Source of the DNA: Pyrococcus abyssi GE5
Lineage (GTDB): Archaea > Methanobacteriota_B > Thermococci > Thermococcales > Thermococcaceae
NCBI RefSeq assembly: GCF_000195935.2
Contig: NC_000868.1
Coordinates: 1,321,237 to 1,345,236, forward strand
Direction of reading: 5' to 3'
Length of the DNA stretch: 24,000 bases
Under the pieces are notes generated by a model. The model ran no database searches, was not told the origin of the DNA, and saw nothing but the letters and a program-made list of their open reading frames with translations. The position numbers and the translations under genes are program-made. Positions 8,555 through 16,133 of this stretch are shown here, in pieces; the stretch's first letter is position 1; each line of letters begins with the position of its first letter.

Positions 8555-9237
8555 AGGTCATTGGAATCCTCGGCGGAATGGGTCCCCTCGCAACCGTGGA
8601 GATGTTTAAGAGGATAGTCGAGAAAACGCCAGCAAAGAAAGATCAAGACCATCCGAAGATAATCATCTTCAACAACCCACAGATTCCAGATAGAACTGCC
8701 TTTATTCTGGGAAAGGGTGAAGATCCAAGGCCAGAGTTAATAAAAACAGCCAAGAAGCTTGAGGAGTGCGGTGCGGACTTTATAATAATGCCATGTAACA
8801 CGGCACATGCTTTCATAGAGGACATAAGGAAGGCGATTAGAATACCTATAATAAGTATGATAGAGGAGACGGCGAAGAAGGTTAAAGAGCTCGGCTTTAA
8901 GAAAGTTGGATTACTTGCCACAACGGGAACTATAGCCAGTGGAGTTTACGAAAAGGAGTTCTCCAAGTACGGAATAGAGGTTCTAATCCCAAGGGAGGAC
9001 GAGCAAGAAGAGGTTATGAAAGGAATATACGATGGAGTTAAGGCTGGAAACCTTGAGCTTGGAAAGGAACTCCTCATAAAAATTGCGAGGAAGCTAGAGG
9101 AGAGGGGTGCTGAGTGCATAATAGCCGGTTGCACTGAGGTTAGCGTTGTCCTTAGTGAAAAAGATTTGAAAGTTCCCTTGATAGATCCAATGGACGTTAT
9201 AGCTGAAGCTGCCGTTAAAGTTGCGCTAGAAAAGTGA
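8551..9237 (+). CDS. Aspartate racemase
   Basis: [16 protein letters not shown]-terminus and the two catalytic Cys contexts IIMPCNTAH and IIAGCTEV. It closely resembles the characterised Pyrococcus aspartate racemase. ATGA overlap with the upstream gene. Confidence 0.9.
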
Positions 9238-9239
9238 AC

Positions 9240-9388
9240 TGGTGGGGGCGCGGGGATTTGAACCCCGGTCCGCGGGTTTCTCCGGCCCTCGGGGCTCCAA
9301 AGGTTCATCACGCCCCGAGGTCAGCAAACCCGCCTGTCCTCATGGCCTCTGGAGCCCGCGATGATAGACCAGGCTACACCACGCCCCC
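9240..9388 (-). tRNA. tRNA-Trp (anticodon CCA) with a 71-nt intron and genomically encoded 3' CCA
   Basis: The reverse complement reads GGGGGCG...GCGGG-CUCCAG|intron|A-CCCGC-GGAC-CGGGGUUCAAAUCCCCG-CGCCCCC-A-CCA. The acceptor (GGGGGCG/CGCCCCC), anticodon (GCGGG/CCCGC) and T (CGGGG/CCCCG) stems are all perfect, with T-loop UUCAAAU. Exons total 78 nt including CCA. Confidence 0.95.
9278..9348 (-). ncRNA. tRNA-Trp intron = box C/D guide RNA (cis-guide for 2'-O-methylation of positions 34 and 39)
   Basis: The intron reads C(AUGAGGA)-CAGGCGGGUUUG-D'(CUGA)-CCUCGGGGC-C'(GUGAUGA)-ACCUUUGGAGCC-D(CCGA). Both spacers are 12 nt. GCGGGUUU pairs with exon-2 AAACCCGC, so the 5th nt upstream of D' faces position 39. 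UUUGGAGCCC pairs with exon-1 GGGCUCCAGA, so the 5th nt upstream of D faces C34. Confidence 0.85.
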
Positions 9389-9416
9389 ACTCGTTTAACC
9401 ATTAGTTCCTGATGAA

Positions 9417-13253: not shown

Positions 13254-13818
13254 AGTTCAGAAAAAACTCAGTAAAAGGATAGTAGAAAAAGAAGTAAGAA
13301 TGGTTAGCAAAATAGCGGCCGTCGATGTTTCGTACAAAGGAAACAAAGCTAGGGTAGCCCTGGTGATATGTTCCTTTCCAGATTGTAAAGTTTTAAAGAC
13401 TAAAGTCCTTGAAACCGAGGTTTCGTTCCCTTACATCCCAACTTTCTTCTTCCTCCGCGAAACTAGGCCGATACTCCTAGTTACCAAAGGAGAAGAGTTT
13501 GACGTTTTGATAGTGGAAGGCCACGGAAAAGCCCATCCGAGGAAGTATGGATTGGCTTCTCATATAGGGCTTATCCTGGGAAAGCCCACGATTGGCGTTG
13601 CGAAGAAATTGCTAAGGGGCACTCCAGAGAATAGTTACCGGAAAGTTGGAAAGGCCTACGTAAGCGTTGGAAACATGATAACTTTGAAAGATGCTGTAAG
13701 GATAATCGAGAAACTCCTCGACGGGGGCTATCCAAAACCGTTAAAACTTGCTGACAAACTATCAAAGGGGAAGATAAGTGAAGATGAAAACACTCTTCCT
13801 TCTGATAAAACTAGCTAA
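13234..13818 (+). CDS. nfi: Endonuclease V (inosine-specific endonuclease)
   Basis: AAVDVSY (catalytic Asp), [12 protein letters not shown] (wedge plus Glu), [17 protein letters not shown] and PTIGVAKK motifs. It overlaps the upstream gene by 20 nt. Confidence 0.85.
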
Positions 13819-14416
13819 AATGGGGGCAATAGGGAAAGAAATCACGGTAACGATGAGAGAATTAAGCAGAGAACTCGATGTTTCTCCTCAAACCGTTCTA
13901 AGGTGGCTTGAAGAGTTAAAGGAGCAGGGTTACATTCACAAGAGGGAATCCAGGAAAGGGACGTTAGTAGAGCTGACTGAAAAAGGAATAAACCTTCTCG
14001 AAAAGCTCTATGAGGAAATTTCTACTGCCCTCTATTCAGGTTTCATCGTTGGGGAAGTAATCTCAGGGATAGGGGAAGGAGCATATTACGTTAGACAGTA
14101 CGCCCCACTAATTAGGGAGTACCTCGGATTTGACCCATACCCAGGAACGTTGAACGTTAGGGTTCTATTTCCAAAGACAATCTTCGATGCGTTGTGCACG
14201 GCGAGGCCAATAATAATCCCAGGCTTCACGAGGAACGGCAGAACGTTCGGCGATGTCAGGGCCTATAGGGTGAGAATCGATGGGATAGAGGGGGCTATAG
14301 TTATACCCTCCAGAACGGTTCACCCACCAAAGATAGCAGAGATAATAGCTCCTGTAAAGCTCAGAGATGCTCTTAACCTAAAAGATGGGGATAAGGTTAG
14401 AATTGAAGTGGTATAG
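13778..14416 (+). CDS. ribK: Bifunctional wHTH regulator / CTP-dependent riboflavin kinase (RbkR-type)
   Basis: An N-terminal winged-HTH ([28 protein letters not shown]) is fused to an archaeal riboflavin kinase domain (DPYPGTLNV, GxxxPSRTVHP). ATG 13820 is an alternative, non-overlapping start. Confidence 0.85.
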
Positions 14417-14573
14417 GCCCGGCTTATCCACCCGCCCTCATTGCCCGCCGTTGTCGGCAACCTCAGGCGGCCCCGGAGACCGGGCCCTGTCCGCCCGGCG
14501 ACGTCGCCTCGTTCATGGCGCGCCTTTCTCGGCACGCTCCCTCGGTCGGGCCTCCGGGCGGCAGGTCGGACAA
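14411..14573 (-). ncRNA. Unidentified GC-rich structured RNA candidate (Hgc-like / possibly H/ACA-like); ends approximate
   Basis: A block of about 160 nt made almost entirely of G and C fills an otherwise AT-rich intergenic region. On the minus strand it forms these helices: CCGCCCGG/CCGGGCGG (14554..14561 with 14491..14498); GCGUGCC-GAGAAA-GGCGCGC (14518..14537); GGGCCCGG/CCGGGCCU (14480..14487 with 14415..14422); and CCGCC/GGCGG flanking a UGAGG...UGAG tandem-GA loop. Two of these helices need a G:U pair on the minus strand that would be an A:C mismatch on the plus strand. TTTAAAAA lies about 25 nt upstream on the minus strand. Confidence 0.6.
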
Positions 14574-14593
14574 TTAAATCTTACCCAAAAGGA

Positions 14594-14602
14594 TTTTTAA
14601 AG
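14594..14602. promoter_or_regulatory. Near-palindromic TATA element, possibly shared by pheS (+) and the GC-rich RNA (-)
   Basis: TTTTTAAAG reads as TTTTTAAA on plus and TTTAAAAA on minus. It lies about 25-30 nt from the pheS start region (14625/14631) and about 25 nt from the edge of the GC block at about 14571. Confidence 0.45.
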
Positions 14603-14624
14603 TTGACATCCTCAACCTTGGGGG

Positions 14625-16133
14625 ATGAATATGACACTTGGGTATAATGAAAAGCTGGTCCTCCTCACGATTGCAAAGCTAGAAAAGGCAAGCGTGGAAG
14701 AGATAGTTAAGGAAACGAGATTGGATCAGGTAGCCGTAATGAGGGCCATTCTGACCCTTGAAAAAGAGGGATTAATAAAGTTACACGAGAGAAAGGAAAA
14801 GATTATCGTTCTGACAGACATTGGAAAGGAGTACTCTAAAATAGGCCTTCCAGAGATTAGAGCGCTTAGGGTTCTTAGGGAGAAGAAGAAAGCATACCTT
14901 GACGAACTTAAAGATGTGCTGAGGGAGGATGAGCTCAAGGCAATAGTTGGAATCCTTAGAAGGGAGGGACTCGCAAACGTCAGGAAGGATGAAAAGGGGT
15001 TAGTCCTTGAGATAACGGAGAAAGGTGAAAAACTCGGTGAAAGACCAATAGATATAGCTTTAAAGCTGTTAAGCGAGAAGGGAGAAGTATCTGTCGATGA
15101 GATAAGTAGGATAATTGACGTCAAAGACCTCAAAAGGAGAAAAATAGCCAGAGAAGATGAGAGGGTTGAGAGAACGGTTGAGATAACCGAGAAGGGAAAG
15201 AAACTCGTGAGTAAAGGCATCGAACTGAAGAGAGAAGTTACGAGACTCACCCCAGAACTAATCGCGAGCGGTAAGTGGAGGGAAGTTGAGCTAAAGCCCT
15301 TCAACATAAAAGCGCCAGTTAAGAGGATCTACCCAGGGAAGAAGCAACCTTATAGAGTTTTCCTGGACAAGATAAGGAGAAGGCTAATCGAGATGGGATT
15401 CATAGAGATGACCGTTGACAGTTTAATAGAAACCCAGTTCTGGAACTTCGACGCGCTCTTCCAGCCCCAGAATCATCCTGCTAGGGAGTGGACGGATACG
15501 TACCAGCTGAAGTATCCTGAGAAGGGTTACCTACCTGATGAAAGCTTAGTCTCTCGAGTTAAGGAGGCCCACGAAAGAGGTTTAGCTGGTTCAAGGGGAT
15601 GGGGATACGTTTGGTCGCCAGAGAGGGCTATGCTCTTAATGCCAAGGGCCCACGCAACGGCTTTAAGTGCTAGACAGCTTGCAAAGGGCATAGAAATCCC
15701 AGGGAAGTACTTCACGATCCAAAGGGTCTTCAGGCCGGATGTTCTGGATAGGACTCATCTAATAGAGTTCAACCAGATAGATGGATTCGTCGCTGGCGAG
15801 GACTTAACGTTCAGGCATTTACTCGGAATACTCAAGAGGTTCGCAATAGAGATAGCTGGGGCAAAGAAAGTGAAGTTCTTCCCAGACTACTATCCATTCA
15901 CGGAACCTAGTGTTCAGTTGAGTGCGTATCATCCAGAGCTTGGATGGGTCGAGTTTGGTGGAGCAGGGGTTTTCAGGGAAGAAATGACGGAAGCTTTGGG
16001 AATAAAGGTTCCAGTAATAGCTTGGGGAATTGGAATCGACAGGCTTGCGATGTTTAAGCTCGGAATAGATGATATAAGGTACCTCTTCAGCTACGACTTG
16101 AGGTGGCTTAGGGAGGCCAAGTTGATATGGTGA
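14625..16133 (+). CDS. pheS: Phenylalanine--tRNA ligase alpha subunit
   Basis: 502 aa with the archaeal/eukaryal-type long helical N-terminus and a class II core ([29 protein letters not shown]). ATG 14631 is an alternative start, preceded by GGGGGATGA. Confidence 0.95.

Follow-up and report, generated by a model that had tools for sequence, protein, structure and literature searches.

The nearest described counterparts of the RNA discussed here are the box H/ACA sRNAs of Pyrococcus, and foremost among them Pab105, which is one and the same as HgcE, RF00060 and P. furiosus Pf3 (PMC2377435, PMC4652768, PMC3849170) and whose two-motif architecture has been published (PMC2377435, PMC4652768). 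This RNA is already known: it was discovered in 2002 by GC-content screening, HgcE being traced by a citation in PMC3849170 to the base-composition screen of Klein, Misulovin and Eddy, and its function was dissected in 2008, when Muller et al. detected P. abyssi Pab105 by northern blot and found its sRNPs to be active after in vitro reconstitution with L7Ae, aCBF5, aNOP10 and aGAR1 (PMC2377435). In that study motif 1 was assigned to position 2554 of 23S rRNA, where pseudouridine was seen by CMCT-RT in cellular rRNA (in vitro activity ++), and the earlier prediction for the same motif, 23S 2552, showed neither cellular pseudouridine nor in vitro activity; motif 2 was assigned to 16S 27 (cellular pseudouridine present; in vitro ++), 23S 2794 (cellular pseudouridine present; in vitro +++) and 23S 1377 (CMCT-RT obscured by a reverse transcription pause; in vitro +++), and 16S 995 was negative both in cells and in vitro (PMC2377435). 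As a class, archaeal H/ACA motifs carry an ANA box, usually ACA, and have an H2 helix of 5 or 6 bp and a distance of 14 or 15 nt between ANA and the target U, Pab105 motif 2 being described with a 6-bp H2 and the 15-nt distance (PMC2377435); the geometry applied below combines this H2 length with a lower stem of at least 7 bp and an internal loop of 5-11 nt per strand (PMC3849170, PMC2377435).

Other Pyrococcus H/ACA sRNAs (Pab21, Pab35/HgcF, Pab40/HgcG, Pab91, Pab160/Pf9 and Pab19) resemble Pab105 in RNP class and in their hairpin-pocket-K-turn-ANA design, and all of them target rRNA, mostly domain V of 23S; they differ from it in that each has guide sequences and targets of its own, and the number of hairpins ranges from one to three. 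Eukaryotic box H/ACA snoRNAs share with Pab105 a synthase of the Cbf5/dyskerin family and bipartite pairing around an unpaired U-N, but are laid out as hairpin-hinge (H box)-hairpin-ACA and lack the L7Ae-binding K-turn.

The locus analysed here lies in a 24 kb stretch of DNA (the window), to which all positions refer, with RNA elements read 5' to 3' on the minus strand. Between ribK (CTP-dependent riboflavin kinase, plus strand, 13778/13784..14416, the annotated protein being 2 aa shorter than the GTG-start ORF) and pheS (PheRS alpha subunit, plus strand, 14625..16133), the interval 14411-14573 has a GC content of 0.724, where the window overall reaches 0.462 and the adjoining spacer 14574-14624 only 0.373, and the 160-nt segment starting at 14410 is the most GC-rich of its size in the 24 kb (0.74, z = 6.1; runner-up 0.67 at 9234). 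An Rfam scan of the whole window at the gathering threshold (50 bits for this family) identified RF00060 (HgcE, Pab105; H/ACA-box type), which aligns over its entire length (model positions 1-130 of 130) to minus-strand 14524..14395 and scores 150.5 bits (E = 7e-34). The product of the adjacent ribK is 100% identical to a P. abyssi protein. The island is almost certainly the gene of Pab105 (HgcE, Pf3), a box H/ACA guide sRNA of about 160 nt encoded on the minus strand, with its own TATA box and two hairpins. It coincides with the described RNA in species, two-motif architecture and guide strands, with no biological difference; the one discrepancy concerns the Rfam model, which spans 14395-14524, whereas the RNA itself would run from about 14409 to about 14571. 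An earlier reading of this DNA, made from the sequence only, had proposed a GC-rich island with a structured RNA on the minus strand and had suggested a link to the Hgc-type RNAs; the island is real and the most extreme in the window, its bounds of 14411-14573 are accurate to a few bases, the RNA call is borne out by the RF00060 match and a strand-specific fold, and the family is indeed an Hgc one, HgcE. Two of its statements must be withdrawn: the RNA is not novel or unannotated, because the Rfam scan which that reading proposed returned a clean match that removes the novelty and leaves the RNA call standing, and its function is not largely unknown, the targets of P. abyssi Pab105 having been mapped and reconstituted in vitro (PMC2377435).

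The 3' hairpin, motif 2 (Pab105.2, 14487..14412), follows from the structure line of the Rfam match. Its 8-bp lower stem GGGCCCGG/CCGGGCCU (14487..14480 / 14422..14415) encloses the 9-nt 5' guide UCUCCGGGG (14479..14471) and the 9-nt 3' guide GUGGAUAAG (14431..14423), above which stand a 6-bp upper stem CCGCCU/GGGCGG (14470..14465 / 14437..14432), a K-turn sequence motif of the GA...UGA type (U-GA at 14465..14463 opposite U-GA-G at 14441..14438) and the apical stem GCCG/CGGC (14458..14455 / 14450..14447); an AUA box (14414..14412) closes the motif. Folded alone, motif 2 has a z-score of -2.88, and 1 of 200 shuffles folds equally well. The H/ACA fold, the L7Ae-type K-turn and the AUA box that had been drawn for this half from the raw sequence are all present; AUA, which had been regarded as an anomalous box, is within the archaeal ANA consensus (PMC2377435).

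The sequence-only reading had confined the H/ACA fold to this 3' half; the 5' half, which it overlooked, forms another H/ACA hairpin, this one followed by a canonical ACA box. This motif 1 (Pab105.1, 14561..14488), delineated from the fold and the alignment, with pocket borders of our own reading, consists of an 8-bp lower stem CCGCCCGG/CCGGGCGG (14561..14554 / 14498..14491), the 8-nt 5' guide AGGCCCGA (14553..14546), an upper stem CCGAGG/ACGAGG of six positions with an internal tandem G.A/A.G (14545..14540 / 14512..14507), a K-turn sequence motif (GA at 14539..14538 facing CAU-GA at 14517..14513), a distal stem GCGUGCC/GGCGCGC (14537..14531 / 14524..14518) with the loop GAGAAA, the 8-nt 3' guide CGACGUCG (14506..14499) and the ACA box (14490..14488), from which the RNA passes directly, without a spacer, into motif 2. 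The RF00060 model covers only the 3' part of motif 1, from 14524 onwards, and its structure line describes motif 2 only; 14525-14571, which holds the 5' arm of motif 1, is absent from it. Both hairpins lie within the geometry of the class (motif 1: 8-bp lower stem, 8 + 8 nt loop and six-position upper stem; motif 2: 8-bp lower stem, 9 + 9 nt loop and 6-bp upper stem), and in both an ANA trinucleotide directly follows the lower stem on its 3' side (ACA 14490..14488, AUA 14414..14412) and is invariant in six species. K-turn sequence motifs with conserved GA dinucleotides lie above both upper stems and are predicted to be L7Ae sites.

Upstream of motif 1, an element TTTAAAAA at 14601..14594 on the minus strand has the sequence of a TATA box, and its spacing suggests that it is the promoter of the sRNA gene. 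A TATA box for a minus-strand RNA had been claimed from the raw sequence, and it is there, its TTAAAAA core unchanged in all six Pyrococcus-group loci; 30 nt past its first base begins the leader GUCCGACC(UG), 14571..14562, so placed that the TATA spacing would put the transcription start at G14571. The GTCCGACC portion of the leader is identical in six species, and the UG at 14563..14562 is a 2-nt insertion specific to P. abyssi; in the MFE fold it lets CCUG form a pairing with CAGG that spans the ACA box. The leader GUCCGACC (14571-14562) also repeats the CCGACC of motif 1 (14546-14551), which straddles the boundary between the 5' guide and the upper stem of that motif. The TATA box itself is nearly palindromic, reading TTTAAAAA on the minus and TTTTTAAA on the plus strand, and stands 24-31 nt ahead of the first ATG of pheS (14625). 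As TTTTTAAA it may also drive pheS, which would make it a bidirectional promoter and the pheS mRNA leaderless; alternatively, GGGGGAUGA before the second ATG (14631) could be a Shine-Dalgarno sequence, with pheS expressed by read-through from ribK across the sRNA antisense.

At the other end, the RNA meets ribK. The stretch 14412-14422, made up of the AUA box and the 3' side of the lower stem of motif 2, overlaps the last codon and stop of ribK on the opposite strand. The ribK stop TAG (14414-14416) overlaps the AUA box, which is the complement of a UAU running from the final GUA codon into the UAG stop; both genes, whose 3' ends converge, thus constrain the same bases. The RF00060 model extends a further 17-19 nt beyond the AUA box as a 3' tail (14411..14395, model positions 111-130) that is antisense to the last ribK codons. 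This tail has probably been conserved through the coding constraint on ribK and not as part of the RNA, and the mature RNA, judging from the general H/ACA rule, is probably trimmed about 3 nt past the AUA, at about 14409.

These overlaps and repeats bear on whether the H/ACA sRNA has an added role, such as extra targets, a role as chaperone while rRNA folds, or antisense regulation of ribK at its 3' end. The convergent overlap of the RNA 3' end with the ribK stop codon, the CCGACC of the motif 1 pocket repeated in the invariant leader and the fact that motif 2 is already multi-target (PMC2377435) speak for such a role, but the overlap with ribK comprises only a few nucleotides and Muller et al. 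found none of the seven sRNAs to have a tRNA target (PMC2377435); we consider it improbable. The preferred reading is that of Pab105 as a guide sRNA for rRNA.

Pairing with one rRNA site can be drawn. When the motif 2 pocket is set against the Arch21F primer site UUCCGGUUGAUCCUGCCGGAGG, the universal 5' end of archaeal 16S rRNA, the best solution centres on the U of GAUCC-U-G-CCGGAGG, with 13 pairs out of 14 positions and a distance of 15 nt from the U to the AUA box (7 guide and 8 stem nucleotides). Together with the 6-bp upper stem, this agrees with the H2 length and the distance published for motif 2 (PMC2377435). The U at the centre is numbered 15 in P. furiosus and 27 in P. abyssi (PMC2377435). 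The 23S targets (2554, 1377 and 2794) are taken from PMC2377435. A guessed motif 1 site, CGACGUCG upstream of GGCACCUCGAUGUCGG, returned only bacterial 23S genes and chance matches in a metagenome scan; with the pattern CGACGTCG N{1,10} GGCACCTCGATGTCGG there were 43 matches, every one of them to bacterial-type 23S or a chance match in GC-rich coding sequence. Some bacterial 23S rRNAs have the octamer of the motif 1 site in their helix 89, which is uninformative for P. abyssi. Moreover, a spurious-ORF bait translated from a 16S sequence gave one match, to a 2.8-kb contig (ENA ERZ27236680 k127_20304), of which positions 1-189 are 94% identical to 700-888 of a Thermococcales-type 16S rRNA and cover no target site, followed by a 622-aa ORF with a TGT (PF01702) domain; the contig is probably a chimeric assembly, or the ORF was mis-called and runs out of an rRNA fragment.

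In the mechanism that best accounts for the locus, the TATA box of the Pab105 gene would drive minus-strand transcription of an RNA of two consecutive hairpins, each with a lower stem, an internal loop serving as pseudouridylation pocket, an upper stem of six positions and an apical K-turn, and each followed by an ANA box (ACA after the first, AUA after the second). Each hairpin would bind L7Ae through the K-turn and aCbf5 through the ANA box, lower stem and pocket, together with aNop10 and aGar1; the two strands of the pocket would pair with the rRNA segments that flank an unpaired U-N dinucleotide, whose U aCbf5 would turn into pseudouridine. As reported for P. abyssi (PMC2377435), motif 1 specifies 23S pseudouridine 2554, and motif 2 16S pseudouridine 27 as well as 23S pseudouridines 1377 and 2794.

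Orthologous loci were obtained through ribK homologues from P. sp. NA2, P. sp. ST04, P. kukulkanii, P. yayanosii and 'Thermococcus' chitonophagus. In line with the conservation check that had been proposed for the ribK-pheS gap, all five carry RF00060 at full length and on the same strand in that gap (about 210 nt; 107-148 bits), with compensatory changes in both lower stems. Across the alignment of the six sequences there is no variation in the TATA core, the leader GUCCGACC, either ANA box (ACA or AUA), the GA dinucleotides of the K-turns or the 5' guide of motif 2, and the 3' guide of motif 2 varies at two border positions only (GYGGAUAAN). Over the 39 proposed pairs and six sequences, 90% of cells are paired, a share that falls to 34-45% if the 3' partners are shifted by 1-3 columns; double-sided changes affect four pairs, a count reached by 1 of 500 shuffles. 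Both lower stems are 100% paired, and in each of them a C-G pair has become U-A through changes on both sides (P. yayanosii for motif 1, P. sp. NA2 for motif 2); the last pair of the motif 2 upper stem is U-G, A-U, U-A or unpaired, depending on the species. In P. yayanosii, C-G pairs replace both G.A/A.G positions in the upper stem of motif 1, which supports the helical nature of that stretch. The alignment, drawn from six close relatives only, provides modest covariation evidence.

Outside this group the picture changes. A set of 80 pheS loci (closest 78% identity, with no named Pyrococcus), searched by nhmmer with the RNA of the window, and Rfam scans of 35 of them yielded no HgcE; 28 of the loci are from Thermococcales, mostly Thermococcus, and none has HgcE beside pheS. 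In T. barophilus, ribK is adjoined downstream by other genes. Among the loci compared, the location of HgcE between ribK and pheS appears to be confined to the Pyrococcus group. Within the group, the HgcE of P. yayanosii (2118-2337 of its locus, aligned to 14488-14561; Rfam 107 bits) has a strongly diverged motif 1, which keeps the lower stem, the K-turn GA dinucleotides and the ACA box, but has approximate guides UCGCCCCGG and CUGGACAC in place of AGGCCCGA and CGACGUCG of P. abyssi, and most of its pocket is closed in the MFE fold. This divergence could reflect co-evolution of guide and target with 23S helix 89, retargeting or decay. A lineage history may be imagined for this RNA of the Pyrococcus group in which the two guide strands of motif 1 were rewritten in the piezophile P. 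yayanosii in step with 23S helix 89, or with retargeting or loss of pseudouridine 2554, and in which the leader GUCCGACC may have an extra role; we hold this account to be unlikely.

The same comparisons, together with the fold, decide the strand. On the minus strand, 14410-14573 folds with an MFE of -86.9 kcal/mol (z = -2.77), which none of 200 shuffles equals, whereas the plus strand (MFE -72.4 kcal/mol, z = -0.01) is equalled or bettered by 94 of 200; stable folding of the island is confined to the minus strand, the one that the sequence-only reading had chosen, and a plus-strand RNA is rejected on its z-score. Its supporting argument, that G:U pairs turn into A.C mismatches on the plus strand, is equally sound, and every sequence element that it had listed, the helices included, was found in its place by a sequence check. 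These observations weigh heavily against a plus-strand, cis-acting pheS leader (a regulatory 5' UTR structure, T-box-like) or a ribK 3' UTR or terminator, either of which would suit an island placed directly between two plus-strand genes, the more so as archaeal guide RNAs frequently overlap UTRs (PMC3849170): not only does the plus strand fold like its shuffles, with A.C mismatches in place of the G.U pairs of three helices, but the Rfam scan of the window gave no plus-strand match at the island, only a minus-strand RNA explains the two ANA boxes (ACA and AUA), the GA dinucleotides of the K-turns and the conserved spacing of the TATA box, and the 28 Thermococcales pheS loci (mostly Thermococcus) have no such element upstream, which leaves these readings with hardly any probability at all. 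Equally negligible is a composition artefact or a gene for a small Arg/Pro/Gly-rich protein, suggested by three Arg/Pro/Gly/Ser-rich ORFs of 68-71 aa across the island (14320..14535 minus, 14385..14600 plus and 14441..14647 plus) and rejected on the ORFs' failure to match any Pfam family at E <= 0.1, which is consistent with their earlier description as compositional artefacts, as well as on the 150 bits scored against a structure-aware RNA model and on between-species substitutions that keep base pairs and not reading frame.

Elsewhere in the window, the second GC island (9229-9390, GC 0.65) is accounted for by a tRNA-Trp(CCA) gene on the minus strand (9240-9388), with a 71-nt intron at position 38/39, and by the Rfam sR40 C/D-box RNA (9347..9287, 97 bits) held in that intron. 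The tRNA was missed by ARAGORN at default settings and found in intron mode, and sub-threshold tmRNA matches at the locus were rejected as chance matches to its tRNA-like part. An intron-encoded C/D guide reportedly methylates its own tRNA-Trp (Clouet d'Orval, 2001), and the pair in the window is presumably this known self-guiding arrangement. A further GC island (1080-1142, 63 nt, GC 0.67) has no Rfam match at E <= 0.1.

In summary, identity, strand, architecture, conservation and the pairing of motif 2 with its 16S site come from the present analysis, the expression of Pab105, its protein partners and its four targets from the literature, and the exact 5' and 3' ends are placed by inference. 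For the annotation of the family, RF00060 omits the 5' arm of motif 1 and includes ribK antisense at its 3' end, so that coordinates derived from Rfam misplace both ends of the RNA. The locus also serves as a positive control, since the raw sequence by itself had allowed a real guide RNA to be read correctly as to its strand and promoter, its H/ACA fold and K-turn, and the family to which it belongs.
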